A stretch of DNA of 64,000 bases from Patescibacteria group bacterium (GTDB lineage: Bacteria; Patescibacteriota; Patescibacteriia; PEXW01), in contig JBAZBR010000002.1 in the NCBI GenBank assembly GCA_041671325.1, forward strand, positions 73,978-137,977, given 5' to 3'. A program made the translations under genes and the position numbers. Under the pieces are notes generated by a model. The model saw only the letters and a list, made by a program, of their open reading frames with translations. It was not told the origin of the DNA and did no database searches. Shown here piece by piece: positions 6,385 to 49,618 of this stretch. Each line of letters begins with the position of its first letter. Position 1 is the first letter of the stretch.

Positions 6385-6385
6385 A

Positions 6386-8950: not shown

Positions 8951-8959
8951 ATTTAAAGA

Positions 8960-9841: not shown

Positions 9842-9858
9842 GCTAAACAGCTAAAAGA

Positions 9859-10001: not shown

Positions 10002-10092
10002 TTCAATTACTGAAAACACTTTAATTCCCCATGTCGATTCTTGCGAAAGTGGGGCTAAGAATCTCCACTTCGGCTTTTTATACTTAAAAAAC

Positions 10093-10506: not shown

Positions 10507-10509
10507 TAT

Positions 10510-10974: not shown

Positions 10975-10997
10975 ACCTTGGATTACGAAATACGAAT

Positions 10998-11426: not shown

Positions 11427-11463
11427 TTAGTATTTTCGTATCCTTTTTCGTAATTCGTAATTT

Positions 11464-13539
11464 ATGCCAAGAGAGTATTCATTAGAAGATACCAGAAATA
11501 TTGGGATTATTGCCCATATTGATGCGGGAAAAACCACTGTTTCCGAGCGGATTTTGTTTTATACCGGCAAAAAGCACAAGATTGGCGAAGTTCATGAAGG
11601 GGAAGCGGAAATGGATTGGATGGAGCAAGAAAAGGAACGCGGTATTACCATCACCGCAGCGGCCACTACTTGTTTTTGGAAAAACAAGCGCATCAACCTT
11701 ATTGACACCCCAGGCCACATAGATTTTACGGTTGAGGTCCAGCGCTCTTTGCGGGTTCTCGACGGCGGTGTAGTAGTTTTTGACGGCGTGGCCGGCGTGG
11801 AATCTCAGTCCGAAACTGTTTGGCACCAGGCTGAAAAATTCGGCGTGCCCAGAATTTGTTTTATTAATAAAATGGACCGCATGGGTGCAGATTTTTACTA
11901 TGACATTAAAAGCATTCACGAACGTTTAACTACCCGCGCGCATCCTCTGCAACTGCCAATTGGTGCGGCCGAGACTTTCAAAGGCATAATTGATTTGTTT
12001 GAACGCAAAGCTTTTATTTATAACGATGATCTGGGCAAAGAACTTCAGGTCATTGAAGTGCCAGCAGACATGAAAGAAAAAGTTGAAGACTATCGGCACC
12101 AATTAATTGAAGCCATTGTCGAACAGGATGAAAAACTCCTGAATCAATACTTAGAAGGCAAAGAGCCTTCATTGGAAGACTTGAAAAAAGTTTTAAGGCA
12201 AGCCTGCATCAAGAATGAAATTGTGCCAATTCTTTGCGGTTCGGCTTTGAAAAATAAAGGCGTGCAGTTTTTACTCGATGCGGTTGTTGAATATTTGCCA
12301 AATCCATTGGAAATCCCTCCGACTAAAGGCAAAGACCCAAAAACCGAAGCTGAAATTATTTGCGAACCAAGCGATGAACAACCTTTTGCCGCTTTAGTCT
12401 TCAAAATAGCCGCTGATCCTTTTGTTGGTAAACTGGCCTTTTTCCGGGTTTACTCCGGATCTTTAAACGCTGGTTCTTACGTGATTAACACCTCGACTGG
12501 TGAAAAAGAGCGTATTGGCAGAATTATCCGTTTGCATGCCAACCACCGAGAAGACATGGAAGCAGTTTATGCTGGAGAAATTGCTGCAGCCGTAGGCTTG
12601 AAAAGCACTTTCACCGGCCAGACAATTTGCGATCCAGCCAGGCCGATTGTTTTGGAAAGCATTACCTTCCCAGCGCCAGTCATTGACCTGGCCATTGAAC
12701 CAAAAACCAAGGCTGACCAGGAAAAGATGGGTTTTGCCATCCAAAGATTAGCAGAAGAAGACCCGACTTTCCGGGTTAAATTTGATGATGAAACCAACCA
12801 GACTATAATTTCCGGCATGGGTGAATTACATTTGGATATTATTGTTGATCGGATGAAACGAGAATTTAAAGTTGAAGCTAATGTCGGCAAACCCCAAGTC
12901 GCTTATAAAGAGACCATTACCGGCGAAGCGGAAGGCGAAGGCAAATACATTCGCCAGACTGGTGGCCGCGGTCAATATGGGCATTGCTGGGTCAAAGTGA
13001 AACCCCAGGAGCGCGGCAAGGGCTACGAATTTGTGGATGAAGTGAAAGGCGGCGCCATCCCGCGTGAATTCATCCAACCAATCAACAAAGGCATAAAAGA
13101 AGCTTTAGACAAAGGCATAATTGCCGGCTACCCCGTAATCGATATGCAGGTTACGGTATATGACGGCACTTACCACGATGTTGATTCTTCGGAAATGGCT
13201 TTTAAAATTGCCGGTTCCATGGCTGTGCAAGCCGCGGTAAAAAGGGCTAAGCCGGTTTTACTTGAACCAATCATGAAAATAGAAGTTGTTACCCCTGAAT
13301 TATTTATGGGGGATGTAATTGGGGATTTGAATTCCAAGCGGGCGCAAATTAAAGAAATGCGGGATCGGGGCAATATGAAAGTAATCGATGCAACCGTACC
13401 TTTGGCGGAGATGTTTGGCTACGCAACTGCCTTAAGATCCATGACCCAGGGCCGAGCCTCATATTCCATGGAATTTTCGAATTATGCGGAAGTGCCTAGG
13501 AATGTGACTGAAGGCATTATCGCCAAAGCTAAAGAGTAA
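11464..13539 (+). CDS. fusA: Elongation factor G
   Basis: [17 protein letters not shown], full-length EF-G. Confidence 0.97.
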
Positions 13540-18396: not shown

Positions 18397-18870
18397 ATGG
18401 ACAGTAAAGCCATTTTAAAAAACATCAGGATTTCTCCAAGAAAAGTCAGATTAGTGGCTGATTTATTGCGGGGCAAGCCAGTCGACCAAGCCACGCAAAT
18501 TTTACAGAATCTTTCCAAAGGCAGCGCCCGGCCATTGTTAAAATTGTTAAAATCGGCCGTGGCCAATGCCAAGCAAAAATTGTCAGTTTCTGATGATAAG
18601 CTGATCATTAGTTCGATTACGGTTGATATGGCTCCCAGATTAAAGCGCTATAAACAAAAAGCCATGGGCAAGGCTGATATTATTTTGAAACATGCCTCGC
18701 ATATCACTTTAAACTTAAAATCAGTCATTGATGATAAAATTTCAAAAAATGAAAAAACCGAAAAATCCGGCAAAACCGGAAAAGAGGTTAAGGTTGAGAA
18801 TGCAAAAAAAGAAAAAACCGAAAAAGATGCCAAAAAAGTTTCAAAATCAATAAAGCCAGAAAGCAAATAG
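18397..18870 (+). CDS. rplV: 50S ribosomal protein L22 (Lys-rich C-terminal extension)
   Basis: Homology. Confidence 0.95.
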   Translation: MDSKAILKNIRISPRKVRLVADLLRGKPVDQATQILQNLSKGSARPLLKLLKSAVANAKQKLSVSDDKLIISSITVDMAPRLKRYKQKAMGKADIILKHASHITLNLKSVIDDKISKNEKTEKSGKTGKEVKVENAKKEKTEKDAKKVSKSIKPESK

Positions 18871-35069: not shown

Positions 35070-35609
35070 ATGGATAATCCACCACAAAACCAAGCAAATC
35101 CCGAAGTAAAAGAAACAAAGAAACCGCTATGGTTTAAGATTATTATAACTTTTGTCATTATCTTAATCGCGGCTATAATTTTTTATGTGTTTGTTTATTT
35201 CACCCAAGGGAATATAACATTTAGCAGGTTGGCAGCACCAATAATTGGTATTTCCCAATTAGAATGTAAATTAAATAAAGGTATTCACTATGTTAATTTA
35301 AATGGAGTCCAGAACATTTGCTTAAAAAAATCCGTTAATGCCGGGAAAGTTTGTACTCATGACAGAGATTGCCAGGGCGGAGGTTGCATGCCATCTGCTA
35401 CAAGGAGTAATGAGACGGGCCCATTTTCAAATTGGCAAGGTACCCCAAAATTTAATGATAAGGGCGAGTTAACGGGTATTTGTAGTGATCTTGATTATTC
35501 AGATTGGCCAACTAAAGATGCGGATAAAATAAACTCTGGCGGATGCAATTTTCCAATCGGGACAATTGATAATCAAACGTATGGAGATAGCGGGTGTTTA
35601 ATTTTTTAG
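35070..35609 (+). CDS. Membrane-anchored Cys-rich hypothetical protein
   Basis: N-terminal TM, about a dozen Cys in the ectodomain. Confidence 0.6.
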   Translation: MDNPPQNQANPEVKETKKPLWFKIIITFVIILIAAIIFYVFVYFTQGNITFSRLAAPIIGISQLECKLNKGIHYVNLNGVQNICLKKSVNAGKVCTHDRDCQGGGCMPSATRSNETGPFSNWQGTPKFNDKGELTGICSDLDYSDWPTKDADKINSGGCNFPIGTIDNQTYGDSGCLIF

Positions 35610-35959: not shown

Positions 35960-38623
35960 ATGGAGTTTTGTCGCGCCACCAACCTAAAAATTGACGAGGT
36001 TTTGCATAAATTTGACGCTTCCAGCAAGGGTTTGAATGGTTTGGAAGTTGATGAGCGTTTGAAGAATTATGGGGAAAACAAGCTGCCCAATAAGGAAGGC
36101 GTAAATTCCTTAAGAACCCTGGTCAGGCAATTTGAAAGCAGTCTGGTTATCATCCTTCTAGTTGCGGCAGTTATTAGTTTTGCCTTGGGCGATAAATTAG
36201 ACGGTTCAGTGATTTTGGCGGCTATTGCCTTGAACGTGGTCGTTGGGTTTTTCCAGGAGTACCGGGCAGAAAGGGCCTTATCAGCTTTGCAAAAAGTCGC
36301 CACTTTCACAGCCACGGTTTTGCGCGACGGCCGGGAGCGGGATATTGACGCCTCGAAAATCGTACCCGGTGATATTTTAGTTTTACACGCTGGCCAGAAA
36401 GTGGCGGCAGATTCCAGGCTTTTGGAACTGAATGAATTAGAAATAAATGAAGCGTCTTTGACCGGTGAATCAGAACCGGTCAACAAAACCACTCATATCT
36501 TGCCAGAGGCGGTGACCATATCTGAGCAAACCAATATGGTTTTTGCTGGCACGGTTATTGTCCGTGGTCGGGGTTTGGCCGTGGTTTGCCAAACCGGCTT
36601 AAACACTGAATTGGGGAAAATCGCCTCAATGCTCCAAACCACAATCACCGAAAAAACCCCCCTACAGAGGAAGCTGATAAAATTGAGTTGGGACATAACT
36701 GTGGTGATTTTAGCTGTGGCGCTTCTGGTATTCCTTTTCGGGATTTTTAAGCTATATGATGTTGAAGCCATGTTCACTACTTCGGTGGCCGTGGCCGTGG
36801 CTGCCATTCCCGAAGGTTTAGCAGTTGTTGTTACGGTAATTTTAGCTATCGGCATGCAACACATGTTAAAGCGCAGAGCATTAGCCAGATCCCTTTTAGC
36901 GGCAGAAGCTTTAGGCTCGATTACTATAATCGCCACAGATAAGACGGGTACTGTAACCGAAGGTTATATGCGGGTGGTGAAAATCCTGACGCACGACAAG
37001 CAAATAATCCATCCACGCCAGGATCCGGGCGAACCAGACCCCAGCGCCTTGATGGTCTTGAAAATTGCGGCTTTGGCTTCTGATGCCAGTATCGAGAATC
37101 CTGATCGGCCATTGGAAGAATGGGATATTCGGGGGAATTTGACCGAAAGGGCTTTGGTCAGGGCTGCGGCAGAAGTCGGTTTCAACTTATTAGCCTTGAG
37201 AAAGCAATACCCGCGCTTGGCTGACGTGCCTTTTGATTCCAGTCGAAGATTCATGGCGGTTTTGTGTGAAAAATCCGGTGATGGATATTTTGTTTTTGTA
37301 AAAGGCGCACCAGAAGTCTTGGTTGCCCATGCAAAATTCATTGATGAAAACGGCAAGCCAGTTTTATTGACTGCCGAAAGGAAAAAAGCTTTTGAAAACC
37401 AGGTTAAAGACATGAGTAGCCAGGGCTTGCGAGCCTTGGCTGTGGGTTTTCGCAAGCTTGACCATAAATATGAAGGAGGTTTTGATGAGGGGTATGCACT
37501 GGATAATTTAAGTTTGGTGGGCGTAGTTGGCATCCAAGATCCTTTACGTAAAGATGCTGCAGAAACTATTGAAACTTTAAAAAGGGCTGGCATTAAAACC
37601 GTCATGCTCACCGGTGATAATCAAGCCACAGCCCAAACCATTTCCGAGGGTTTAGGTTTGCTGAAAGATGGTGGTGAAGTCATGGACGGCAGGGAACTGG
37701 AAAAATATGACGAGGAGCATTTGAAAGATAGAGTTAAAGACGTAAAAGTTTTTGCCCGTGTCAGTCCTCGGGATAAGTTAAGGATTGTTGACGCCTGGCA
37801 AGCTCGCGGTGAAGTCGTGGCCATGACTGGCGATGGCGTCAATGATGCACCAGCCCTGAAAGCCGCCAATATTGGCGTGGCATTGGGTTCAGGTACGGAC
37901 GTGGCCAAGGAAGCAGCAGATTTAGTTTTACTGGATAACAGCCTTTCCACCATTGCTAATGCGGTTTTTGAAGGTCGGGTCATTTACCGCAACATGAAGC
38001 GGGTAATTTTATATTTAGTTGCCGGGTCTTTTGTGGAGTTGACGGTGGTAGTTGGCGCTTTGGTCATCGGCTGGCCCTTGCCTATGAGTGCCGCCCAAAT
38101 CCTCTGGATAAATTTGGTCACTGATTCTTTGCCGACCATAAGCATGACCCAAGAGCCGGCTGATCCTGGAATATTGGAAGAGCCACCGGTCAAACCGACC
38201 CGGCCGATTATCGGCAATTTCACCCGGTTTATGATGTTGTTATTAGCCTTAACTGTCGGTGGCGGCAGTCTTTTGCTTTTCTGGCTTGGCTGGTCAGATG
38301 GCCAAGCCCTGGCTTATGGCCGAACCATGGTTTTTACTTCCATCAGCGTCGTGCATTTAATGGTTGTTTTTACCACCCGAACCTTGAGGCGGCCAATGTA
38401 TTACACTTCGCCGTTTCATAATCCCTCCTTAATCTTTGCAGTTTTTATCTCCTTGGCTCTGCAATTAGTGGCAGTGTATACATCTTTTGGCCAAAGGGTT
38501 TTTGGGACTATACCTTTAGGCATAAGTGATTGGGCGTTAATTCTCTTGCTTGGTGTGATAACCATCGTCATTTGTGAATTTAGCAAGATTTGGTTTAGGC
38601 GGAGACAAATAGCCGAAGCTTAA
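35960..38623 (+). CDS. P-type cation-transporting ATPase (type II, Ca/Mg-like)
   Basis: DKTGTVTE phosphorylation site, MLTGDN, GDGVNDAPAL. Confidence 0.9.
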   Translation: MEFCRATNLKIDEVLHKFDASSKGLNGLEVDERLKNYGENKLPNKEGVNSLRTLVRQFESSLVIILLVAAVISFALGDKLDGSVILAAIALNVVVGFFQEYRAERALSALQKVATFTATVLRDGRERDIDASKIVPGDILVLHAGQKVAADSRLLELNELEINEASLTGESEPVNKTTHILPEAVTISEQTNMVFAGTVIVRGRGLAVVCQTGLNTELGKIASMLQTTITEKTPLQRKLIKLSWDITVVILAVALLVFLFGIFKLYDVEAMFTTSVAVAVAAIPEGLAVVVTVILAIGMQHMLKRRALARSLLAAEALGSITIIATDKTGTVTEGYMRVVKILTHDKQIIHPRQDPGEPDPSALMVLKIAALASDASIENPDRPLEEWDIRGNLTERALVRAAAEVGFNLLALRKQYPRLADVPFDSSRRFMAVLCEKSGDGYFVFVKGAPEVLVAHAKFIDENGKPVLLTAERKKAFENQVKDMSSQGLRALAVGFRKLDHKYEGGFDEGYALDNLSLVGVVGIQDPLRKDAAETIETLKRAGIKTVMLTGDNQATAQTISEGLGLLKDGGEVMDGRELEKYDEEHLKDRVKDVKVFARVSPRDKLRIVDAWQARGEVVAMTGDGVNDAPALKAANIGVALGSGTDVAKEAADLVLLDNSLSTIANAVFEGRVIYRNMKRVILYLVAGSFVELTVVVGALVIGWPLPMSAAQILWINLVTDSLPTISMTQEPADPGILEEPPVKPTRPIIGNFTRFMMLLLALTVGGGSLLLFWLGWSDGQALAYGRTMVFTSISVVHLMVVFTTRTLRRPMYYTSPFHNPSLIFAVFISLALQLVAVYTSFGQRVFGTIPLGISDWALILLLGVITIVICEFSKIWFRRRQIAEA

Positions 38624-38689
38624 GAAAAATTTCGCCACTTAACAACAACGTAGGGCAGTTTTTGTTAAGCTAAGGTCTAGTAGTAAATT

Positions 38690-38830
38690 AATTATTTTCC
38701 CCTCTCATATAAAGGAGAGGGTGGCCGGAGGCCGGGTGAGGTTGGCTAAAATTAATTACTATTATTCCGATATTCCGAGTACCCTCACCCCCTTCCCTCT
38801 CCCAGTGGGAGAGGGGGTGGTTTTATAACA
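38690..38830 (+). promoter_or_regulatory. Cluster of GC-rich hairpins in the asnS upstream region
   Basis: CCCTCTC/GAGAGGG; GGGTGAGG/CCTCACCC; CCTCTCCC/GGGAGAGG followed by GGTGGTTTTAT. Confidence 0.45.
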
Positions 38831-38904
38831 TATTCATATATTTTTGTATTTGCCAAAAAGCCTAAAAATTAGTATAGTTAAGGGGCAATTATTTATTAAT
38901 TCCC

Positions 38905-40200
38905 ATGACAGTTAAAATTTCCGAGATTGCCAAATATGTCGGTAAGGAGGTAACCATCCAAGGCTGGATTGCTAATCTTCGCTCATCAGGCAAGATTGTT
39001 TTTTTGCAATTGCGAGATGGCTCTACTGGGATTTTGCAAACCGTAATTGCTGCAGATTCAATCAGCCAAACTGATTTTGAAGCAGCTAAAGCCTTGACAA
39101 CAGAATCCTCGGTTGAAGTCAACGGAAAAGTTATTGCTGAACCGCGTTCGTCAGGTGGATTTGAAATGCAGGCTAAAGCCATTAAAATAATCCAAAAATC
39201 AGAAGAATACCCAATTGGTAAAAAAGAACACGGGCCGGAATTTTTACTAGACAATCGGCATTTGTGGCTGCGAGCCCAAAGGCAAGTAGCCATTTTGCGG
39301 GTTCGGGATTCAATCATCTGGGCTTTGCGGGAGTTTTTCCGCCAGGAAGGCTTTGTCATGACTGATACGCCAATTTTAACCCCAACCTCTTGCGAAGGCA
39401 CTACCACTTTGTTTGGAACTGAATATTTTGGTGAAAAAGCCTACCTTTCCCAATCTGGCCAATTGTATTTAGAGGCCTTATGTATGGCTCTGGGCAAGGT
39501 TTATGATTTTGGCCCGACTTTTCGGGCGGAAAAATCCAAGACCCGCCGGCATTTGACTGAATTCTGGATGCTGGATGCGGAAATGGCTTATATGGATTTA
39601 AATCAAAGCATTGATCTGCAAGAACGCATGGTGGTTTATGTCATTAAAAAAGTTTTACTTGAAAGGAAAAAGGAACTGGAAATTTTGGAAAGGGACACTA
39701 AGCCATTGGAAAAAGTTGCTGAAGGCGGGTTTATTAAAATGACTTATGATGAAACTTTGGTTGAATTGAAAAAACTTGGTTCAGACATCAAATGGGGGAC
39801 AGATTTGGGCAATGACGATGAAACCATTTTGACCCAAGCTCATGACAAGCCTATTTTTGTCACCAATTATCCGCTGGAGATAAAAGCTTTTTACATGAAA
39901 CCGGATCCCAAAAATCCCAAAACCGCCTTGTGTGCTGACATGCTGGCGCCCGAAGGCTATGGGGAAGTTATCGGCGGCTCGCAGAGAATTGACGATTTGA
40001 AATTGCTGGAGCAAAGGTTGAAGGAGCACAAACTGCCAAAAAAGGATTTTGAGTGGTATTTAGATTTGCGCAGATATGGCTCAGTGCCGCATTCGGGTTT
40101 TGGCATTGGCTTGGAGCGGACTGTGACCTGGCTTTGCGGATTGAAACATGTTCGTGAGGCGATTCCTTTTCCCAGACTGATAAACCGGTTAACGCCTTAA
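38905..40200 (+). CDS. asnS: Asparaginyl-tRNA synthetase
   Basis: Class IIb; FRAEKSKTRRHLTEFWMLDAEMAY matches the AsnRS motif 2 region. Confidence 0.85.
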   Translation: MTVKISEIAKYVGKEVTIQGWIANLRSSGKIVFLQLRDGSTGILQTVIAADSISQTDFEAAKALTTESSVEVNGKVIAEPRSSGGFEMQAKAIKIIQKSEEYPIGKKEHGPEFLLDNRHLWLRAQRQVAILRVRDSIIWALREFFRQEGFVMTDTPILTPTSCEGTTTLFGTEYFGEKAYLSQSGQLYLEALCMALGKVYDFGPTFRAEKSKTRRHLTEFWMLDAEMAYMDLNQSIDLQERMVVYVIKKVLLERKKELEILERDTKPLEKVAEGGFIKMTYDETLVELKKLGSDIKWGTDLGNDDETILTQAHDKPIFVTNYPLEIKAFYMKPDPKNPKTALCADMLAPEGYGEVIGGSQRIDDLKLLEQRLKEHKLPKKDFEWYLDLRRYGSVPHSGFGIGLERTVTWLCGLKHVREAIPFPRLINRLTP

Positions 40201-40202
40201 AT

Positions 40203-40634
40203 ATGTCAAAAAAGAAAATAATTTTTTTAGTTATCATCTCATTGATACTTATTGGAATTATATTAATTTGGTTCTTTATAATAAATAATAGAAATTTAAA
40301 TAATAAAACTTCTTCTTGCCCTCATAATTTTGGTTGGAGCAATAGTCCATGTACCTATATTCATGTTTTACCAAAACAGGAAGTTATTGATTCAATAAAT
40401 AGTTGTCAGGTTTATTATTTTGATTCTGATATTGGTATTATTTTCACCGCGAATAATGGTTGTAAAAAGGGAAGTAAGTTTTTAAATGCGGATTCGGGTG
40501 TTACTTATTTTAACGCATACGGCCAATACATTACTGAATGTAATGCTTTTGCAGAAGGTCCTTTTCCTAGCGATAAATGCACTTGGTTAGAGAAGTTAAC
40601 AGGAAAAACCCTTAGCACAAAAGTAGGCGAATAA
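40203..40634 (+). CDS. Membrane-anchored Cys-rich small protein
   Basis: N-terminal TM then Cys-rich 100-aa domain. Confidence 0.6.
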   Translation: MSKKKIIFLVIISLILIGIILIWFFIINNRNLNNKTSSCPHNFGWSNSPCTYIHVLPKQEVIDSINSCQVYYFDSDIGIIFTANNGCKKGSKFLNADSGVTYFNAYGQYITECNAFAEGPFPSDKCTWLEKLTGKTLSTKVGE

Positions 40635-40653
40635 AAATTAATTTTTTAAACAC

Positions 40654-42060
40654 ATGAAAAATCCCAAAGGTTTTCTCCCCATCGCCGCAATTATTATTAT
40701 CATAGTGGTTGCTGCCCTCGCCGCAGGCGGTTCGTATTATTACACCAAGACCCTGAATAAAAACACCAATTCCGTATTAAATACCAACATTGCAGTTGTG
40801 GATGAAAATACTAATGCAGTCGTTAACACAAATACAACAGTTGTAAATGGGAATACAAACGTAACCGTAAATTCAAACGGCAATTTGAATACCAATACTG
40901 TGGTCTTAAATACCAATACCGCCGTGAATTTAAATACCAATACGAGTACCATCAAATATCCTGGGCAAGAATGGCCAGGGTTGACTGATAACTCGGTTTT
41001 ATATCAAAAATACTCGAGCACAGCATCTGACGAGAAGGTCTATACTGTCCAACCTGGGCAGCAACCCAGCGTATATTTTACAATTCCAACGGGTTATTCA
41101 TTGGTTTCAAATGAGAGCGGCCGGCTTATTTGGTTGGAGAAAGATAATTATTTATATATTTATGATATTCAAAAAGGGAGCACCAGAAAAACTTCTTTGC
41201 CCGCTTTAATCGCTGGTGAGGTGCGTTTTGAATCTGCAAGACCCACTGTTTACTCAACAGATGGCGTAGAGGTGATTATTCAGTACAGTCTCTTTGATAA
41301 GAATTCCGCCGCATATAATAGTGAATTTGCGGGGCCTAATCCAATTTCCACTAAACGTTACCGTTATAATATTACTACCAACACCTATACCCCTGGAGAA
41401 AACATGAGCGGGATATTTTATTCTTTATGGGATCGTAAATTAAATATTGGCTATAACCATTTAGCCGGTGAAGGGGTTGGTTCCAAGGCCCCTATCGAAA
41501 AGACTTTCTTTGATACCGGAAACACGGAAGACTCTGCGGATTATGGGAATAATTCTACTCCTGCTTTTTCACAAGATGGAAAGTGGGTTGCCGTACCTGA
41601 ACCATCTAAGGCGCCACTGAAAATATATATATTTTCTCTCCCAGATATAAAAAATCCGGTTAAAACCCTCACCTTACCTACCGTGAAAGATACGCCGCCA
41701 GTCACAAATACCTTAGGGTATATTTACGACTTCGAATGGACAACGGATGATCAAAATTTAATCCTTTCATTTAACCACTCTATTTTCGTAATCAATGTGC
41801 AAACAGAAAAAGCCACAAAGGTTTTCGATAATACCCAAAATGATTCAAGTTATACTGGATGGAGTTATTATCCAGAGATATCCGGATCAAATAGGTATAT
41901 TTATTTTGTTGATTACAGCAATTCTAATCCAGCAACCCTCAAACCAGAAAATAACATCGATGAATTAAAGGCGTATGACATCACAACCGGGAAAACTACA
42001 ATTCTATTAAAAACAACTGGAGAAACAAATATTCAATTAATAGGATTTGATAATTTCTAG
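40654..42060 (+). CDS. Paralog 1 of membrane-anchored surface protein family (conserved N-terminal TM + N/T-rich linker, divergent C-terminus)
   Basis: MKNPKGFLPIAAIIIIIVVAALAAGGSYYYTK + NTN repeats shared with 42097 and 43392 genes. Confidence 0.75.
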   Translation: MKNPKGFLPIAAIIIIIVVAALAAGGSYYYTKTLNKNTNSVLNTNIAVVDENTNAVVNTNTTVVNGNTNVTVNSNGNLNTNTVVLNTNTAVNLNTNTSTIKYPGQEWPGLTDNSVLYQKYSSTASDEKVYTVQPGQQPSVYFTIPTGYSLVSNESGRLIWLEKDNYLYIYDIQKGSTRKTSLPALIAGEVRFESARPTVYSTDGVEVIIQYSLFDKNSAAYNSEFAGPNPISTKRYRYNITTNTYTPGENMSGIFYSLWDRKLNIGYNHLAGEGVGSKAPIEKTFFDTGNTEDSADYGNNSTPAFSQDGKWVAVPEPSKAPLKIYIFSLPDIKNPVKTLTLPTVKDTPPVTNTLGYIYDFEWTTDDQNLILSFNHSIFVINVQTEKATKVFDNTQNDSSYTGWSYYPEISGSNRYIYFVDYSNSNPATLKPENNIDELKAYDITTGKTTILLKTTGETNIQLIGFDNF

Positions 42061-42096
42061 TAAAATTTTATTAAGCAAATTTTTAAAATTATAATT

Positions 42097-43287
42097 ATGA
42101 AAAATCCCACAGGTTTTCTCCCCATCGCCGCTATTATAATAATCGTAGTAGTTGCCGCTGTTGTGGCAGGCGGTTCGTATTATTACACCAAATCCTTAAA
42201 TAAAAACACGAATACGGTTGTAAATACAAATGTTGCGATGGTGAATGAAAATACTAATGCGGTTGTTAATACAAACACAACAGTTGTAAATGGGAATACA
42301 AACGTAACCGTAAATTCAAACGGCAATTTGAATACCAATACAGTAATCGTTAACTCAAATACAAATACCGTGGTTAATTCAAATACTAATTCTGATGCAA
42401 CCGCTGGGTGGAAGACGTATACAAATGCAAAACAGGGTTACTCCGTGAAGTATCCAAGTAATTGGGTTACGCAGGTTCAAAACACAAATGGTGGTGAGGT
42501 AGCAAATGGCAATATAACAACCTTTTGGAGTAAGCCAAACTACAAAGATCTTATACCAGAAGGTACTGAGTGGGTACCAACAGATACACTTTATTATTTT
42601 CGTGTCCATTACCAAGACGAAAGTAGTGCAGCAAATGCGGTAGATCCGAACACCAAGAAACTCTCTAGTGAAGCAATAACCGTTGGTGGGATCTCTGGTT
42701 TAAAAGAGGCATATCAGGGTGCGTATGGAAAATGGACGGTTGTTTATGTAACCAAAAATGGCATAAAGTATGGTTTATATTTACCAGACAAAACCGCCGA
42801 ACAACAAGCACATGCATCAACCATCCTTTCCACCTTCACCTTCCTCGACCAAACCGTCGGGTGGAAGACGTATACGAATACAGAATATGGTTTTTCATTT
42901 AAGTACCCTGCTTCTTGGAAAGAGACAGATTACACCGCTTCGGCTGATTCTCCACTGAACAGCGATGGTGTGAAATTTGAGGATTCAGCTGGGAAAGCTG
43001 GTTCGTTTTACTGGATGCAGGGCGGATATGTACCAACCCAAGACGGTCAGTGGGATTCGACGACAACATCATTGACGGTTGGTGGTCGAACAGCTTCACA
43101 AGTCAGAATGACACCTAAAGCCGGTCAACAGTGGGCAGGTGGAGAACCAAAGCCTCGTGCGGTGGTGAGTCTAACTAGTAATCCGACAACTTGGGGGAGT
43201 AATGCAAGTATGGGTTTAGTGCAAGGCTCTGAAAAGTCTTGGGTAACAGTAGATACTATTTTGTCCACCTTCACTTTTACGAAATAA
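42097..43287 (+). CDS. Paralog 2; C-terminal region has two WKTYTN-x-YGFS-x-KYP-x-W repeats
   Basis: N-terminal ~88 aa near-identical to paralogs; ILSTFTF C-terminal motif. Confidence 0.75.
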   Translation: MKNPTGFLPIAAIIIIVVVAAVVAGGSYYYTKSLNKNTNTVVNTNVAMVNENTNAVVNTNTTVVNGNTNVTVNSNGNLNTNTVIVNSNTNTVVNSNTNSDATAGWKTYTNAKQGYSVKYPSNWVTQVQNTNGGEVANGNITTFWSKPNYKDLIPEGTEWVPTDTLYYFRVHYQDESSAANAVDPNTKKLSSEAITVGGISGLKEAYQGAYGKWTVVYVTKNGIKYGLYLPDKTAEQQAHASTILSTFTFLDQTVGWKTYTNTEYGFSFKYPASWKETDYTASADSPLNSDGVKFEDSAGKAGSFYWMQGGYVPTQDGQWDSTTTSLTVGGRTASQVRMTPKAGQQWAGGEPKPRAVVSLTSNPTTWGSNASMGLVQGSEKSWVTVDTILSTFTFTK

Positions 43288-43294
43288 ATTTTTA

Positions 43295-43351
43295 ATGAGC
43301 CGTATTTTAGTCAAAGACGCAACAAAAAGAATTAACGAACCAATCTTGTAA
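43295..43351 (+). pseudogene. Duplicated remnant of the aspS 5' end (MSRILVKDATKRINEPIL*)
   Basis: ~75% nt identity to aspS start (44487: MKRILVKDTVNKINEPVLL). Confidence 0.6.
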
Positions 43352-43391
43352 ATTGGATGACAAAATTTTAGTTAAATTAATATTAAAGAAT

Positions 43392-44477
43392 ATGAAAAAC
43401 CCCAAAGGTTTTCTCCCCATCGCCGCAATTATTATAATCATAGTGGTTGCTGCCCTCGCCGCAGGCGGTTCTTACTATTACACAAAGACCCTGAATAAAA
43501 ACACTAATACCGTGTTAAATACCAATATTGCGGTGGTGAATGAAAATACTAATGCGGTTGTTAATACAAATACAACAGTTGTAAATGGAAATACAAACGT
43601 AACCATGAATTCAAACGGCAATTTGAATACCAATACTGTGGTCGTCAACTCAAACACTAATGTCGTGGTTAATTCAAATACAAATTCTGATGTAACCGCT
43701 GGGTGGAAGACATATACAAGCACAAAATATGGTTTTTCTCTGAAATATCCTCTAACCATGCGTGTTTTAGAGGTAAACGAAACGAGTGGAATAATCCTTA
43801 GGGTAGGTGTTGAGGGGTCGGCAAATGGGGATAATGTTTTGGTTTATAATAAAAGTTCAAATGCTGGAATTCCTTATAGCACAGTTAAATCAGAAAGTGG
43901 TAAGTCTTTCGTTATTTCTCATGTTGGCGTTGAGGCCGATCAAATTCTTTCCACCTTTGTTTTCCTCGATCAAACCGCTGGGTGGAAGACGTATACAAAT
44001 TCTGAATATGGTTGGACTATGAAATATCCGAATGATTGGACGGTCAATAATTCTTATCAGACAACAGATCCGAATGACATTTTTGAAACCCCGATTCGCA
44101 CAACGACTTTCACAAATCCCAACAAGTATTACAGGTTGCTTGTCGGGATAAAAAAGAAAACCGATTCCGGTAGTATTGTCCCACGGACTGGGATTGGAGC
44201 GGGAGAATTTATAAAAGGCGATACAGTTTTAATTGGTAGCACTTCAATGACTTTATGGAATTTAAATTATAATAATTTGACTTCTGAGATTTTTAATTAC
44301 AATCCAAGTACAAATTCCAATTTTGAAATTAGCAATTTTCAATTTATTGCATATTTCGATTGTGGTACAGCAGCAACCATAGAAACAATAAAGCGTTGCG
44401 ATCAAACAAATTTATCAGTAATACCAGAATATAAAACTTTTAAACTTATTCTTGGTTCATTAGTATTGCCTAATTAA
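43392..44477 (+). CDS. Paralog 3; two WKTYT-x-YG-x-KYP repeats
   Basis: Start at MKNPKGF (the track ORF begins 39 nt upstream). Confidence 0.75.
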   Translation: MKNPKGFLPIAAIIIIIVVAALAAGGSYYYTKTLNKNTNTVLNTNIAVVNENTNAVVNTNTTVVNGNTNVTMNSNGNLNTNTVVVNSNTNVVVNSNTNSDVTAGWKTYTSTKYGFSLKYPLTMRVLEVNETSGIILRVGVEGSANGDNVLVYNKSSNAGIPYSTVKSESGKSFVISHVGVEADQILSTFVFLDQTAGWKTYTNSEYGWTMKYPNDWTVNNSYQTTDPNDIFETPIRTTTFTNPNKYYRLLVGIKKKTDSGSIVPRTGIGAGEFIKGDTVLIGSTSMTLWNLNYNNLTSEIFNYNPSTNSNFEISNFQFIAYFDCGTAATIETIKRCDQTNLSVIPEYKTFKLILGSLVLPN

Positions 44478-44486
44478 AAACGTTAA

Positions 44487-45878
44487 ATGAAACGAATTCT
44501 CGTAAAAGACACCGTCAATAAAATCAATGAACCAGTCTTGTTAAAAGGCTGGGTGCATAATCATCGGCGTTTGGGCAAGATGGTCTTTGTGGATTTGCGG
44601 GATCGTTCTGGGATTATCCAAGTTTTGTTTATGGATAAAATGGTGGAAAAGGCCAATCAGATTCGGCCAGAGTGGGTGGTAGAAATTACAGGAAAGGTGG
44701 TGGAACGTGGTGGCAAGAATAAAAATCAAAGCTCGCCCACCGGGGGAGTGGAAATCCATGCCACGGATTTGAAAGTCTTATCAGAAGCCTTAACCCCGCC
44801 ATTCCCCGTAAATGATGAAACCAAAGCCCAGGAGACTTCTGAAGATCTGCGCATGAAATATCGTTATGTGGATTTACGCCGACCCAGCATGCGGCAAAAT
44901 TTAGTCTTGCGGGCGAAGGTTAACTATTTCATCAGGAATTTTTTGACGAGCGAGGATTTTTTGGAAATCGAAACTCCTTTCTTGACCAAGGGTACGCCTG
45001 AAGGCGCCAGGGAATATATTGTACCAGCCAGGAATTTTCCAGGTAAATTTTATGTCTTGCCACAAAGCCCGCAACAGTTCAAACAATTATTGATGGTATC
45101 TGGCATTGAAAAATACTTCCAATTGGCCAAATGCTTCCGGGATGAAGACCAAAGAGCTGACCGCCAGCCGGAATTCACCCAGTTGGATTTGGAAATAAGT
45201 TTTACGGATCGGGAAGAAGTTTTGGCTTTAATTGAGAAAATGATCATTAATTTAGTCAAAGAAGTTTGTCCAGAAAAACATATTACCCAAACCCCTTTCC
45301 CCAGGATCACCTATAAAGAGGCCATGGAAAAATATAAAAGCGATAAGCCGGATATTCGAAAAGACAAAAACGAAAAAAATGAATTAGGCTTTGCTTTTAT
45401 TATTGATTTTCCCTTGTTCGAATATTCAGAAGCTGAAAAAAAATTAGTCCCTAGCCATCATCTTTTCACTTCACCTCAAGACCCTGAAGCTTTTTTAAAG
45501 GGCGAGGTTAAACCCGAAAATGCAATATCAAAGCAATATGATCTGGCTTTGAATGGTTTTGAAGTGGCTGGGGGCAGTATTCGGATCCATGATTGGAAAT
45601 TACAGGAAAAGATTTTTGAAATCTTGAAAATCGGCAAGGAAGAAGCGGAAAAACGGTTTGGCCACATGCAAAAAGCCTTCAGTTATGGCGTTCCTCCGCA
45701 TGGCGGCATTGCCATGGGTATGGATAGGTTAGTTGCCATTTTGGCCGGGGAAAGCAATATCCGCGAAATCATGGCTTTTCCCAAAACTAATGACGCCAAA
45801 GATCTGATGATGGAAGCGCCTACCGAATTGCCTAAAAAACAACTGGATGAGGCGCATATCCAGATTAAAAAGAAATAA
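44487..45878 (+). CDS. aspS: Aspartyl-tRNA synthetase (short form lacking GAD insertion)
   Basis: CFRDEDQRADRQPEFTQLDLEISF motif 2; GGSIRIH; 463 aa. Confidence 0.88.
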   Translation: MKRILVKDTVNKINEPVLLKGWVHNHRRLGKMVFVDLRDRSGIIQVLFMDKMVEKANQIRPEWVVEITGKVVERGGKNKNQSSPTGGVEIHATDLKVLSEALTPPFPVNDETKAQETSEDLRMKYRYVDLRRPSMRQNLVLRAKVNYFIRNFLTSEDFLEIETPFLTKGTPEGAREYIVPARNFPGKFYVLPQSPQQFKQLLMVSGIEKYFQLAKCFRDEDQRADRQPEFTQLDLEISFTDREEVLALIEKMIINLVKEVCPEKHITQTPFPRITYKEAMEKYKSDKPDIRKDKNEKNELGFAFIIDFPLFEYSEAEKKLVPSHHLFTSPQDPEAFLKGEVKPENAISKQYDLALNGFEVAGGSIRIHDWKLQEKIFEILKIGKEEAEKRFGHMQKAFSYGVPPHGGIAMGMDRLVAILAGESNIREIMAFPKTNDAKDLMMEAPTELPKKQLDEAHIQIKKK

Positions 45879-46193: not shown

Positions 46194-48074
46194 ATGTTAA
46201 AAAAACCGTTTAAAGCAATTGTCGCCCTTTTTTCGGTTTTGGTTTTGGTATTGCCCATGGTGACTAAAGCCGATGGCATGATGGTAGTCCCGCCAAATTA
46301 CTGGATGCGGGAAGACACCCAAAAAGCCGTGGTTTTTTATGATAAAGGTGTTGAGTCTTTGATCCTTTCCATAACCTTCCAGGGCAATGCCAATGACTTT
46401 GGTTGGATTGTACCAACCCCAACCAAGCCAACGGTAACCAAAGGTTCGGATGAAATATTTACCAATTTACAAAAATTAACCAGCACACGTTCAGATTATC
46501 CTGTGTCTGCTTTTGATTTAGGCTTTAGTGGCAGTGAAAAACAAACCAGCGGCGTATCGGTTATTGAAACCAAACAAGTTGATTATTATGATGTGACAAT
46601 TTTAACCGCTACAGATAAAGACGCCTTAACCAAATGGTTTGCGGATAACAAGTATAATTACCCGGAATCTGCCTCTTATATTTTAAACACTTATATCCAG
46701 AATAACTGGTATTTTGTGGCCATGAAGATCAATCCGCAGAGTTTGGAATGGAGCAATGTTACCAGCAGTTTACGGACTGGCCATGCCACGCCCGTGGTCA
46801 TGCAGTTTGCCACTGAAAATATAGTTTATCCTTTAAAAATTTCCACGGTTGTCAGCCAGGCGAATACCAATACTAATGCAAACGCCAACAGCAACACTAA
46901 TACCCCGGTAATTGTTTATGATGCCTCAAATTTCACTTTTGGGCCTGGGAAATTTGGCAAGGCTATAAATATTTCAGGCAGTAAGAATTTATCATATACT
47001 GCTGGAACTGAATTTCCTTATAATAGCGGGACGATTGAAGCCCAAATCAATATCCAGCCCTGGGAAAGCGGAGGTTACCGAAATATTTTGTCAGTCGGGG
47101 ATAGCAAGGGTTCAAATGTTTTTCAATTACGTTTGGCTAAAGCCTATTCTTCTGATACTACAGCAAATCCAGAAGAAACCATTCAGTTTGTTTGGTATAA
47201 AAGTACTGGAAGTAGCTTGATTTGGCGGACTACAGCGTCAACCCCTGTTACGCCAAACACTTGGCATCATGTGGCGGTCACCTGGACAAGCGGCCAAAAA
47301 CCCCAGATTTATTTAGATGGGGTGGCTATGGCAACTAGCGCTGCTTATAATGCAACCACCTGGTTAGGGCAAAGCATCAGCAATGGTTCATTCCAGGTAA
47401 TTGGCAGCCGTTTGGGCAAGTATGAATATTTAAACGGTTATCTAGATGAATACATAGTCCGAAACCAAGCGATAACCGCTACTGAAATTGCAGAAGATGC
47501 CAAGACAGTTATGCCGACTAACCCGACAGTCTCGGCGAAATATGACTCTAACGTGGTCTATTACGCGAATTTTGATGACAATATCAAACTGGAAGATGCC
47601 GCTGGTGTTGAATACAGCCAAAAAGCCGTAGTTATCGTCCAACCAAAGACAATCACCCTTCCTGATTATTATTCAAAATCCCAATACATAACCCTTTATG
47701 TGATTGCTAATGAGCGCAAGGATGCTACGGGTTTTTCCACGACTTATGCCAATTGGTTCAGCAAAAAATCTTTAGAAGATTTAGCTTTTTCTTCAACAGG
47801 TTCGCCCTTACTGGCCGTGAGTGGTAAAAAAATGTTTGTGACAGTCATGAACCGGACAATATCCTCTGGTCAGAACTTGGATGATGTTTTTTTCCGGACG
47901 GCCAGTAGCCAAAGCCTTTTGGGTACTGCTCCAGATTATACGGAAAATGGGACTTTAGCTTTTTGGATATTTTTGGGTGCGGTTTCATTAATTTCAATTG
48001 TTTTAATCTTAATTTTGATTTTGTGGAACCGTCGAACCGTAGCGCCACCAACCAGCCCCCTACCAAAGCTTTAA
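46194..48074 (+). CDS. Secreted/membrane-anchored protein: DUF2330-like N-terminal domain with embedded LamG/concanavalin-like domain, C-terminal TM
   Basis: Signal peptide; VVPP...DFGWIVPTP (DUF2330 signature); WHHVAVTW...IYLDGV (LamG-like); C-terminal hydrophobic helix. Confidence 0.65.
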   Translation: MLKKPFKAIVALFSVLVLVLPMVTKADGMMVVPPNYWMREDTQKAVVFYDKGVESLILSITFQGNANDFGWIVPTPTKPTVTKGSDEIFTNLQKLTSTRSDYPVSAFDLGFSGSEKQTSGVSVIETKQVDYYDVTILTATDKDALTKWFADNKYNYPESASYILNTYIQNNWYFVAMKINPQSLEWSNVTSSLRTGHATPVVMQFATENIVYPLKISTVVSQANTNTNANANSNTNTPVIVYDASNFTFGPGKFGKAINISGSKNLSYTAGTEFPYNSGTIEAQINIQPWESGGYRNILSVGDSKGSNVFQLRLAKAYSSDTTANPEETIQFVWYKSTGSSLIWRTTASTPVTPNTWHHVAVTWTSGQKPQIYLDGVAMATSAAYNATTWLGQSISNGSFQVIGSRLGKYEYLNGYLDEYIVRNQAITATEIAEDAKTVMPTNPTVSAKYDSNVVYYANFDDNIKLEDAAGVEYSQKAVVIVQPKTITLPDYYSKSQYITLYVIANERKDATGFSTTYANWFSKKSLEDLAFSSTGSPLLAVSGKKMFVTVMNRTISSGQNLDDVFFRTASSQSLLGTAPDYTENGTLAFWIFLGAVSLISIVLILILILWNRRTVAPPTSPLPKL

Positions 48075-48097
48075 ATTTATTTATTTAATTTAAAAAT

Positions 48098-48625
48098 ATG
48101 GACAATATAAATATTTTGCCCACCACCCCAGCACCAATGCCGCCAAAGAAAAAGTCTGTGCATAGCCCGCTTTCAATTTTGTTCATGATTATCTTGACTG
48201 GTGTTTTGATAATCTTGGTGGAAAAAGTCATGCACGATGTGAATCGTTCATTTAACCCGTATTCCGCTTATTCAGTCAGCAAGACTTCTACGACTTACCG
48301 GGCTTATTCCCAGGACAAATACGAAGCTGGCCGGCTATTGATCCATACGGGCATAACCTTGCCAATCCTTTTGGGCGCTTTATTATTTTACCTTTTGCAT
48401 GAAAGAAAATCCGGCAGTGGCGCACATGTGGTTTCCTGGTCTTTTTTTGCCACAGCCTTTTGGCTTTGCATCCGGCTTTTAGGTGAAATGTTCTATTTCC
48501 TAATCAGAAAATACGAAAGCTTGGGAGTTTACGTGGTTTTAATTGTCTTGGCGGCCGTCTTAATCTGGTTGGTAGTGGCCTTGCAAAAGCGTTATGCCCA
48601 CCAAAGGGAGATGCACTTGAATTAA
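48098..48625 (+). CDS. Hypothetical 4-TM membrane protein
   Basis: Hydrophobicity. Confidence 0.6.
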   Translation: MDNINILPTTPAPMPPKKKSVHSPLSILFMIILTGVLIILVEKVMHDVNRSFNPYSAYSVSKTSTTYRAYSQDKYEAGRLLIHTGITLPILLGALLFYLLHERKSGSGAHVVSWSFFATAFWLCIRLLGEMFYFLIRKYESLGVYVVLIVLAAVLIWLVVALQKRYAHQREMHLN

Positions 48626-48626
48626 T

Positions 48627-48974
48627 ATGTACACTGTTCAAAGAGTTTATATTTGGAATTGGGCCAAACTTTGCGCCTTGTTTAATATTATTGGCATCTT
48701 AATATACGCCGTGATATTTGTATTTATTGGATTTTTGGGAGGTAATTTTGACTTAGCAGTATTTGGGCACGGTTCTTTAAGCGGATTTGGAGTCATATTA
48801 GCCATGGTTCTGCTTATTGGAATATTGTCGGGTTTGGGTTTTGGCGCTTTAATTGCCGCCATCTACAACGGGCTTTCTAAAGTTTTTGGCCCTATTGAGG
48901 TTGAAATTAGTTTTGAGCCGGAAAACATTCCAGAAGCGGCGCCTGAAGTTAATTCACAAATCCAACAAACTTAA
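48627..48974 (+). CDS. Small membrane protein with YNxLSxxFGxI motif
   Basis: ALIAAIYNGLSKVFGPIEVEI. Confidence 0.6.
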   Translation: MYTVQRVYIWNWAKLCALFNIIGILIYAVIFVFIGFLGGNFDLAVFGHGSLSGFGVILAMVLLIGILSGLGFGALIAAIYNGLSKVFGPIEVEISFEPENIPEAAPEVNSQIQQT

Positions 48975-48976
48975 AT

Positions 48977-49618
48977 ATGTACTCTCTTGATAGGTTTAAA
49001 GTTTTGTCAGTTGGTAAGGCTTTTGCAATAGTCGGTTTGGTCGGCGGGATTTTTGGAGGGCTATGGGTGTTTTTGACTTTTTCTAATGTGGCCTGCATGC
49101 AAGTTGATGTCCAACCCTACCAGACAAGCGGATTGACTTTGGCCCCAGACTATTGTTCAACACCGGGTTTGGCCACCAGATTGCTGGTCTTGTTTATTGC
49201 TTGGCTGGCCTGCATTGCCTTGGCCTTTGTTATGGGGATTATTTATGCCGCTTTGTATAATTGGTTGTCCGAATATTTTGGGAAAATTAAGGTAAGGTTG
49301 AATTTAAACCAAAAAGGCGCTTACGAAATAACCCATTTCCAGGTTTGGTCAGTGGTTAAGAACCTGGCCATCATTTGGCTGATAGTCGGTTTAATTGTTA
49401 ACGTGCTTGTGATTATTTTTTCTATTAATTTCTTTGGTGCATTCTTAAGTTTCGGAAGCTCAAATGTCTTTTATGAGTCAAGTTTATTTGCTTTTTTAAT
49501 TGGTTGGTTAGGTTCGGCAATCGCATTTGTAGGCTTAACCGCCTTAATTACCTGGCTTTATAATTTACTCAGCCGATTTGTCGGCCATATTACCATTCAT
49601 TTAGGCGTAAAATCTTAA
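48977..49618 (+). CDS. Membrane protein, internal duplication of the preceding unit (two YNxLSxxFGxI motifs)
   Basis: IIYAALYNWLSEYFGKIKVRL and ALITWLYNLLSRFVGHITIHL. Confidence 0.6.
   Translation: MYSLDRFKVLSVGKAFAIVGLVGGIFGGLWVFLTFSNVACMQVDVQPYQTSGLTLAPDYCSTPGLATRLLVLFIAWLACIALAFVMGIIYAALYNWLSEYFGKIKVRLNLNQKGAYEITHFQVWSVVKNLAIIWLIVGLIVNVLVIIFSINFFGAFLSFGSSNVFYESSLFAFLIGWLGSAIAFVGLTALITWLYNLLSRFVGHITIHLGVKS

Follow-up and report, generated by a model that had tools for sequence, protein, structure and literature searches.

Tandem anchored-protein genes between asnS and aspS of a Patescibacteria group bacterium share a homogenised 5′ module in front of different ectodomains

Introduction

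That tandem clusters of surface-protein genes recombine at conserved segments is not a new principle, since such clusters are known in pathogens. In Helicobacter pylori babA/babB and the streptococcal mrp-emm-enn genes, the 5′ ends of the paralogs are kept near-identical by intragenomic recombination and the exposed parts differ; each of these systems comprises one protein family of a pathogen, with variation tied to host immunity or adhesin specificity. Another layout is found in Mycoplasma pulmonis vsa, Neisseria pilE/pilS and Borrelia vlsE, where a single expression site is accompanied by incomplete silent cassettes and, in many cases, by a dedicated recombinase. The closest described system to the array reported here is the tandem lpl (lipoprotein-like) cluster on the nuSa-alpha island of Staphylococcus aureus, in which homologous recombination is proposed to take place at a conserved segment (Tsuru & Kobayashi 2008, PMC2568036); S. 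aureus also has related 'gene accordion' clusters (PMC7360770). Here we describe four tandem genes for membrane-anchored proteins, a Cys-rich gene followed by genes A, B and C, in a stretch of 64,000 nucleotides from a Patescibacteria group bacterium (assembly GCA_041671325.1, contig JBAZBR010000002.1, positions 73,978 to 137,977 of the forward strand). This whole stretch is called the window, and coordinates refer to it unless another contig is named.

Patescibacteria, or the candidate phyla radiation (CPR), have extremely small cells and live for the most part as episymbionts. Contacts at the cell surface are believed to be central to their biology, yet for most of their envelope proteins no function is known. 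We conclude that the array is probably a tandem paralog cluster in which the 5′ module of A, B and C is homogenised by gene conversion, and in which ectodomains are gained, lost and exchanged by recombination between lineages.

Results

Three tandem genes share a 5′ module

The array lies between two housekeeping genes, as a preliminary description of this DNA had stated, and Pfam analysis identified them as the asparaginyl-tRNA synthetase gene asnS (38905..40200, forward strand; tRNA-synt_2, E 8e-76, with an OB anticodon-binding domain), whose position is syntenic in the related contigs L001, L086 and L091, and the aspartyl-tRNA synthetase gene aspS (44487..45878, forward strand; tRNA-synt_2, E 4e-114). 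The slot between them is headed by the Cys-rich gene (40203..40634, 143 aa), for which both the open reading frame (ORF) and the N-terminal hydrophobic helix were confirmed, followed by A (40654-42060, 468 aa), B (42097-43287, 396 aa) and C (43392-44477, 361 aa; locus tags of the array WCT08_03385-03400, in a Patescibacteria metagenome-assembled genome, MAG). All four ORFs are intact and lie on the forward strand. C in fact begins at ATG 43392, and the TTG ORF from 43353 is only a read-through on its upstream side. An independent assembly from a different ENA sample (L087, ENA ERZ27249449) is 100% identical to the window across 38905-45878 (~7 kb), and therefore the array is not an assembly artefact; gene B is recorded on three contigs.

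A repeat search revealed one three-copy direct-repeat family of 300 nt (D1; 40653-40952, 42096-42395 and 43391-43690; 80-87% identical), and no further copy was found in the 64-kb window. The copies form the 5′ modules of A (40654..40950), B (42097..42393) and C (43392..43688), all on the forward strand, with codon-aligned nucleotide identities over the first 97 codons of 87.3% (A-C), 86.6% (B-C) and 81.1% (A-B). Similarity begins at the ATG, the spacers upstream being unrelated to each other, and falls to a background of ~25-45% beyond ~290 nt; between B and C it reaches slightly beyond the module, through the first WKTYT motif. The preliminary description had reported a common 5′ region of ~270 bp at ~90% identity, which is real and slightly longer (~290 nt), with a lower identity of 81-87%.

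As had also been described, translation and composition confirmed that the module encodes GGSYYYTK followed by an Asn/Thr-rich stalk. The complete layout is a short basic leader (MKNPKGF), a transmembrane (TM) helix of ~19-20 residues, the juxtamembrane GGSYYYTK and a ~65-aa Asn/Thr/Val (N/T) stalk, in which Asn makes up 33-36%, Thr 21-23% and Val 18-21% across A, B and C (33%, 23% and 18% in A). A nucleotide tandem repeat underlying the NTN stalk was rejected, as Tandem Repeats Finder gave only one 1.9-copy unit of 21 nt. Each of the four proteins has a single strong hydrophobic segment, located at the N-terminus (Kyte-Doolittle 19-residue maxima 2.9-3.3, elsewhere <=1.3; 2.87 at residues 7-25 of A and 3.34 at residues 9-27 of the Cys-rich protein). 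No Cys lies within or after this segment in A, B or C (..VVAALAAGGSYYYTK..), so that the three proteins have no lipobox. Judged from sequence, the four proteins would be type II (N-in, C-out) anchored or exported, probably facing outside, and the stalk would keep the ectodomains at a distance from the membrane.

A metagenome-wide search for the codon pattern V-A-A-x-x-x-G-G-S-Y-Y-Y-T-K, in a collection without the source contig, matched only contig L086, and the module is therefore rare. The NCBI call of gene A in a near-identical MAG (P0091, WC270_03065, 420 aa) begins at the internal GTG codon 49 and loses the leader and TM helix; the full module is kept in the gene A calls of L087 and in the orthologs P0008 and P0017.

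The slot between asnS and aspS varies among related genomes

The slot holds the Cys-rich gene, A, B, an aspS relic (see below) and C in the window. In L001 (Ca. Parcubacteria SURF_31) it contains only the C ortholog (C1), with 10-nt spacers, and the flanking aspS is 86.6% identical to that of the window at the nucleotide level (AspRS 93% at the protein level). Only an A ortholog (A86 in the comparisons below) is present in L081/L086, which represent one organism (aspS 81% nucleotide identity), and the more distant L091 carries an A-type gene (66% amino acid identity) with a different TM helix. Comparison of aspS places the window and L001 as sisters relative to the outgroup L086. The slot contents are thus [Cys, A, B, C], [C], [A] and [A], which excludes the static picture of identical content in relatives. 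The spacers upstream of the first slot gene, through which an origin of the [C] content of L001 by recombination between an A module and a C module could be tested, are too short and AT-rich to decide.

The ectodomain of C1 shares 90% protein identity with that of C, and P0017 is an A ortholog (91% identical) that carries the module. Ectodomains of this array also occur behind other anchors, in agreement with the proposal of the preliminary description that ectodomains have been swapped. In another genome, the ortholog of the B ectodomain (P0002, 53% amino acid identity) is a single gene between secG and uvrC, and its anchor differs from the window module and is accompanied by a Cys-rich insert. 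P0004 combines the same anchor type as P0002 with only the second domain of B, and the A relatives P0121-P0123 carry other anchors.

Modules group by genome and not by orthology

Nucleotide identity of the module is higher between the paralogs of the window (81-87%) than between orthologs (69-75%). For the paralogs A and C it is 87% over the module and 94.8% over the anchor, i.e. the 32 codons of unambiguous alignment (83% for B-C); the corresponding values are 69% and 79% for the orthologs A and A86, and 75% and 71.9% for C and C1. Among the parsimony-informative sites of the quartet {A, C, A86, C1}, 23 favour (A,C)|(A86,C1), 3 the orthology split and 3 the third split.

The same contrast is seen at synonymous sites. 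Nei-Gojobori synonymous divergence (dS) of the module is 0.44-0.67 between the in-genome paralogs and 1.6-2.3 between orthologs, compared with 0.87 for aspS and 1.37 for asnS between the window and L001. The module of gene C stands at a dS of 0.44 to that of A and of 2.26 to that of its own ortholog C1. The 5′ regions are accordingly more alike than the remainder of the genes down to synonymous sites, where the B-C ectodomains are saturated. From the grouping by genome and the dS contrast it follows that the three modules of the window were homogenised after the split from L001. Together with the sharp drop in C/C1 synonymous divergence exactly at the module/ectodomain junction, this bears out the earlier suggestion that the module serves as a substrate for recombination.

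A relic of aspS and a low-divergence tract in gene C

Within the 104-nt spacer between B and C, a stretch of 62 nt (43291..43353, forward strand) is a relic of the beginning of aspS, detected by alignment to 44483-44545 (local alignment score 37, shuffles 17.7 +/- 2.4). It includes 4 nt upstream of the ATG and encodes MSRILVKDATKRINEPIL*, compared with MKRILVKDTVNKINEPVLL of aspS. The relic matches the first part of aspS at 69-73% of nucleotides in the window, L001 and L086, but at only 37% in L091. A foreign donor of the relic was also considered; over 59 nt, its distances to all three clade members are equal (69-73%) and do not discriminate. The relic implies that a gene ending like B once abutted aspS, and therefore that the array would have grown by a segmental duplication or insertion ending ~57 nt inside aspS.

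Comparison of the window with L001 also revealed a tract of low divergence (43692..44050, forward strand), which covers domain 1 of C and is flanked by two WKTYTN-motif repeats. Nucleotide identity in the tract is 87-98%, with identical runs of 90, 46 and 60 nt. In 60-nt bins, the C/C1 module is 48-82% identical, and the rest of C together with aspS 80-93%. Third codon positions differ at 16/126 sites (12.7%) in the tract, 147/464 (31.7%) in aspS and 16/32 (50%) in the anchor (tract versus aspS, Fisher p = 1e-5), and the proportion of synonymous differences (pS) is 0.12-0.21 in the tract versus 0.52-0.74 in four flanking genes. The ends of the tract coincide with the two copies of a conserved junction motif in C (repeat family D2; 43689-43760 and 43968-44039). 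The simplest reading of this pattern would be a recent exchange of a single ~360-nt domain between the lineages of the window and L001, and it suggests that the codons of the junction motif may act as homology arms.

Upstream of the array, in the alignment of 35960-40200 with 676-4914 of L001, synonymous divergence is very uneven across adjacent housekeeping genes, and pS within asnS swings from 0.44 to 0.83. This unevenness hints at a mosaic recombination history of the whole region, beyond the array.

Different predicted folds stand behind one module

The preliminary description had suggested structure prediction for the C-terminal domains. AlphaFold2 returned an all-beta model of moderate confidence for the A ectodomain (40951..42060, forward strand; pLDDT 72.5, pTM 0.73), and the top Foldseek matches in the PDB were TolB, WD40 and S9/DPP4 propellers (E ~1e-9, TM-score 0.4-0.54), which predicts a β-propeller. 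The A ectodomain gave no Pfam or NCBIfam match at E <= 0.1, including PD40 and WD40 profiles, and just 6 relatives were found among 5.8 billion protein clusters.

The B ectodomain (42394..43287, forward strand) is predicted to consist of two tandem PsbP/Mog1-fold domains (~42394-42846 and ~42847-43287). It matched Pfam PsbP_2 (PF18933) with 32.0 bits, above the gathering cut-off of 27 bits, and the AlphaFold2 model (pLDDT 86, pTM 0.76) displays two tandem alpha/beta domains. Foldseek matched this model to TplEi, which has two PsbP-like domains and was the top match, and to CyanoP, PsbP, DcrB, Mog1 and EagT6; target TM-scores were 0.56-0.63 against CyanoP (2lnj) and PsbP (2vu4/1v2b), and the TM-score for TplEi was 0.27. 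For the C ectodomain (43689..44477, forward strand), two PsbP-like domains (43689-43967 and 43968-44477) were assigned from the motif layout and profile matches: PsbP_2 reached 21.9 bits, below the 27-bit cut-off, and domain 2 aligned to the family alignment with an hhalign probability of 98.8%, over 65 columns only. Some members of the PsbP-like family are already named 'PsbP-related protein' by NCBI. The photosystem II PsbP equivalog (NCBIfam NF040946) was scored at 35 and 23 bits, short of its cut-off of 60, and no photosystem genes occur in the scanned parts of the window; here and below, the scanned ORFs are those outside the ribosomal/elongation factor (EF) block (~11-27 kb), which was assigned by position only.

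The A ectodomain is not homologous to those of B and C, and B and C have the same fold but share only 31% protein identity. The statement that the C-terminal domains diverge completely is hence accurate for A against B and C, and too strong for B against C. The duplicated WKTYTN modules noted earlier in two of the genes are likewise present, with two WKTY..YP..W copies each in B and C, although one C copy is without the final W; the accompanying ILSTFxF motif occurs twice in B and only once in C. Ectodomain dN/dS (ratio of nonsynonymous to synonymous divergence) is 0.13-0.16, i.e. ordinary purifying selection. From the models, the propeller and PsbP-like domains may be binding modules for ligands or partners at the episymbiont surface.

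The Cys-rich protein consists of the N-terminal TM helix and a ~100-aa domain with 4 invariant Cys (C68, C87, C113 and C126) and W128-L129. It has no Pfam or NCBIfam match, and a word-indexed search returned only the protein itself; an exhaustive HMMER search of 1.84 billion proteins yielded 5 representatives, four of them distant relatives. P0126 has the Cys-rich domain behind a similar anchor and ahead of an N/T linker with a PsbP-like domain, and the Cys-rich protein therefore belongs with A, B and C to one modular toolkit. At this position the gene is specific to the lineage of the window, since L001, L086 and L091 lack it. Another anchored Cys-rich protein of 179 aa, with one N-terminal TM helix and ~9 Cys, is encoded at 35070-35609, just upstream of an ATPase gene; it has no Pfam match and is by sequence apparently unrelated to the 40203 protein.

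Comparable arrays occur in other Patescibacteria

Homology to B led to two further arrays, both with anchors unlike that of the window. In L088, two tandem genes have 97-100% identity for ~120 nt from their starts before they diverge, and three genes of a six-gene tandem block in L089 share ~270 nt at 70-90%. The L089 block (4875-11671 of JAYUIJ010000044.1, GCA_043766165.1) comprises six anchored N/T-stalk genes between rplU and recR, with a single 5′ module common to genes 2-4 and a different anchor common to genes 5-6. The syntenic position of the window (29.7-31.9 kb) is occupied by a hydrolase gene and a 349-aa acidic ORF without Pfam match.

Among the best 120 family hits, at least 8 further lineage-specific N-terminal modules were recognised, each 72-100% identical over 32 residues; several of them run for ~100 aa through Cys-rich inserts, and the remainders of the proteins are 26-41% identical. 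Two such inserts between the TM helix and the N/T stalk, each part of a lineage-specific common N-terminal module, are C-x-IDADCSSYCGADxCFQPICG.. (P0002, P0004, P0046 and P0098) and CTxEAKxCPDGSxVGRTGPxCxFAxCP (P0009, P0014, P0035 and P0052). Self-BLAST of 94 CPR loci (1.45 Mb) found common gene starts only in these arrays, other short direct repeats being mostly non-coding. Such sharing of gene starts is thus characteristic of this protein family and not a general habit of CPR genomes.

Genomic surroundings

The window represents a housekeeping core with a two-component system, an ABC transporter, the ribosomal/EF operon, secY-adk-map, recR, dnaB, an ATPase, scpAB, glycolysis genes and signal peptidase I. 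Rfam detected three tRNAs only in the whole window and nothing inside the array, and promoter and terminator scans gave no excess over the shuffled expectation. A second variable block (46194-49618; in L001 from 7696 onward) lies downstream of aspS and a small basic companion gene. It encodes a membrane protein of the DUF2330+LamG type, in which a NTNTNANANSNTNT linker is present as well, and three small multi-TM ORFs, and is followed by a YbaK-like tRNA_edit gene; DUF2330/LamG is also present in L086, whereas in L001 the YbaK-like gene and scpAB come next without such a block. An ORF of the PD-(D/E)XK_3 nuclease family (10998-11426) lies between rpsG (10510-10974) and the EF-G gene (11464-13539), within a str operon that is canonical in other respects. 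A last repeat family (D4, 18728-18835) consists of short imperfect direct repeats (48 nt, 63-75%); the coding sequence there is rich in Lys and Glu and probably specifies a protein tail of low complexity.

Discussion

The locus is probably shaped by two coupled processes. Gene conversion, i.e. non-reciprocal homologous recombination, would keep the address module near-identical among the paralogs of one genome, and the uniformity of the module would in turn supply the homology for capture, loss and exchange of ectodomains, with breakpoints where module and ectodomain meet and, it seems, at the domain-junction motif (..ILSTFxF-D-x-T-A-G-WKTYTN..) as well. In the most economical history, the slot ancestrally held [A] only. 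The PsbP-like genes would have been added before the window/L001 split, at least one step being a segmental duplication or insertion that ended inside aspS and left the relic; the L001 lineage would have lost A and B after the split, and the Cys-rich gene would be a late arrival in the lineage of the window.

A history of one-off domain shuffling, which we consider improbable, dispenses with continuing conversion: in the lineage of the window, the A module would have been duplicated twice in recent time and fused to imported PsbP-like ectodomains, the modules simply being young. It would accommodate the fact that dS between the paralogous modules (0.44-0.67) is lower than that of aspS between the window and L001 (0.87), that the nearest relative of the B ectodomain sits at another locus behind another anchor, and that domain 1 of C is apparently a recent import. 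However, the same slot of L001 is already occupied by C behind a module of this type, and domain 2 of C and aspS are at background divergence, consistent with vertical descent. C and its module are thus older than the split, yet the C module is nearer to those of A and B than to that of C1, and it must therefore have been overwritten, which is conversion. The unequal module identities (87% for A-C and B-C versus 81% for A-B; 95% for A-C versus 83% for B-C over the anchor) moreover suggest several events, and the same pattern is seen again in many lineages.

An array of immunity or adaptor proteins against secreted toxins is very unlikely. The PsbP/Mog1 fold is found in TplEi, an immunity protein of the type VI secretion system (T6SS), and in Eag chaperones, and genes for immunity proteins are often arranged as tandem strings that recombine. 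TplEi was the top Foldseek match of B, and EagT6 was matched as well. Tandem strings of non-identical immunity genes that evolve by recombination between paralogues are known from a published study (PMC9484751), which counts in favour of this idea. Yet the scanned parts of the window contain no toxin, T6SS or type VII secretion system genes, and the match of B is generic for the superfamily, as PsbP and CyanoP match too and the TM-score to TplEi is 0.27. The β-propeller of A is not an immunity-type fold, and the stalks of the family suit display away from the membrane.

We give hardly any credence to a static old family in which strong protein-level selection on anchor and stalk keeps the N-termini alike with no recombination. 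Module dN/dS is indeed low (0.07-0.18), and the leader, GGSYYYTK and stalk are conserved at the protein level in orthologs too. Codons for the same amino acid, however, are identical in 73-79% of cases between paralogs versus 53-59% between orthologs, and protein-level selection alone therefore does not explain the likeness of the modules. Such a family would also leave unexplained the grouping by genome, the non-homologous ectodomains behind one module and the variable slot content.

Equally far-fetched is programmed phase or antigenic variation, with one expressed gene and silent cassettes as in Mycoplasma vsa and Neisseria pilE/pilS, or a target of a diversity-generating retroelement (DGR), although tandem genes with a constant 5′ part and variable 3′ parts would fit such a system. 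Each gene starts from an ATG of its own and possesses the entire module and an uninterrupted ORF, which is not a layout of expression site and silent cassettes. The inverted repeats are only short, AT-rich and imperfect; no recombinase, transposase or reverse transcriptase was detected among the scanned ORFs, and neither a repeat pair of the template/variable (TR/VR) type (the window repeats being D1-D4 only) nor slippage-prone tandem repeats were found. DGR, invertase, transposon and pilus-operon contexts were likewise rejected on the annotation of the scanned ORFs. The assembly from the other sample is identical over 7 kb, and the ectodomain dN/dS of 0.13-0.16 is that of purifying selection. 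The surface-protein diversification proposed in the preliminary description therefore holds as evolutionary turnover of cassettes across genomes, and not as rapid programmed variation or an antigenic-variation switch. Finally, mis-joins induced by repeats during assembly or binning have practically no chance of accounting for the array: three ~300-nt repeats within 3 kb might confuse short-read assemblers, but at 81-87% identity reads can tell them apart, no reading frame is broken, the 7-kb region from another sample is byte-identical and B is on three contigs.

Several points weigh against the reading of module conversion with recombining ectodomains that we prefer. The module has ~95 codons, two thirds of which are low-complexity stalk of ambiguous alignment, leaving an unambiguous anchor of 32 codons, and several dS values are near saturation. 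The baseline between the window and L001 is uneven (pS 0.52 for aspS, 0.63 for asnS and 0.72 for the P-type ATPase), and because this background is heterogeneous, the import tract depends on a contrast with it over 126 codons. The comparison set comprises three or four related genomes, two of them as short contigs, and the succession of gains and losses is argued from parsimony. No structural variation was seen at the population level, the independent assembly L087 being identical.

With module conversion and ectodomain exchange as the probable cause, the locus offers a concrete and testable picture of how part of the CPR surface repertoire evolves, and the large PsbP-like family, together with the rare propeller and the Cys-rich companions, becomes a set of candidate host- or ligand-binding surface proteins. 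In practical terms, ortholog calling and start-codon annotation are unreliable in this family, as illustrated by the NCBI gene A that loses its anchor by starting at an internal GTG, and the module offers a convenient tag by which more proteins of the display set can be located in a given genome.

A further, tentative reading, which we think possible but doubtful, takes the module as a lineage-specific 'display adaptor' maintained by conversion and used across Patescibacteria, which would export any recombined cassette at a fixed distance from the membrane. The module and the WKTYTN/ILSTF junction codons may in addition serve as homology arms for the exchange of single domains between related cells. 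The leader MKNPKG|F with the following 19 hydrophobic residues resembles a class III (prepilin-type) signal, a resemblance at the level of the motif only. A [KRQ]-G-[FILV] leader directly before the hydrophobic segment is found in 34/109 family members versus 4/160 control anchored CPR ORFs, and the family-wide form (40654-40680 in the window; P0002-P0120) is M-K-N-x-[KR]-G-[FIV]. Glu at +5 is present in 0/34 of the motif-bearing members, N_methyl/pilin HMMs (profile hidden Markov models) gave no matches, and neither Peptidase_A24 (prepilin peptidase) nor pilus genes are encoded among the scanned ORFs. CPR cells are thought to contact hosts through a type IV pilus apparatus, and the substrates of the archaeal 'bindosome' have class III signals without Glu+5. 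Going by these motifs, the K-G-[FIV] leader may be cut by a prepilin-type peptidase, and display of the proteins may take place on, or together with, the type IV pilus apparatus, in a manner comparable to the bindosome substrates.

Among individual proteins, B and C share the fold of the PsbP/CyanoP/Mog1p/DcrB/DUF1795 superfamily. They are not subunits of photosystem II, given the sub-threshold equivalog scores, and unlike photosystem PsbP they have two tandem domains on a TM anchor and N/T stalk, with strongly conserved WKTYTN..YGFSFKYP..W and ILSTFTF boundary motifs. The fold of A is like that of TolB/WD40 propellers, but A belongs to no such sequence family, forms a very small family by itself and has neither the TolB N-terminal domain nor a Tol-Pal context. 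No paper tying PsbP-like proteins, gene conversion or tandem anchored paralogs to CPR/Patescibacteria was found in the literature searched, where the sole co-mention of PsbP and Patescibacteria is unrelated.

Like vsa, pilE/pilS and vlsE, the array combines a constant 5′ part with alternative 3′ parts, but unlike them it consists of complete, independently translatable genes, with no recombinase in the scanned ORFs and no meaningful inverted repeats. It differs from babA/babB and mrp-emm-enn in that its module is common to unrelated folds and in that evidence for fast switching is lacking. The likeness to the S. aureus lpl cluster is closer: both consist of same-strand tandem paralogs for envelope proteins with a conserved nucleotide segment in each ORF, shuffled variable parts and a gene number that differs between related genomes. 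The window array accordingly displays a conserved segment in tandem paralogs, phylogenetic incongruence between conserved and variable parts, and differences in gene content. However, the conserved segment of lpl is central and the products are lipoproteins of one family, whereas that of the window is the 5′ end and encodes no lipobox Cys; the window array further differs from lpl in its non-homologous folds, its CPR host and its housekeeping slot in place of a genomic island. In short, what sets the window array apart from lpl is that the conserved segment is a 5′ anchor and stalk, that the proteins are not lipoproteins, that non-homologous folds stand behind one module, and that the host belongs to the CPR.

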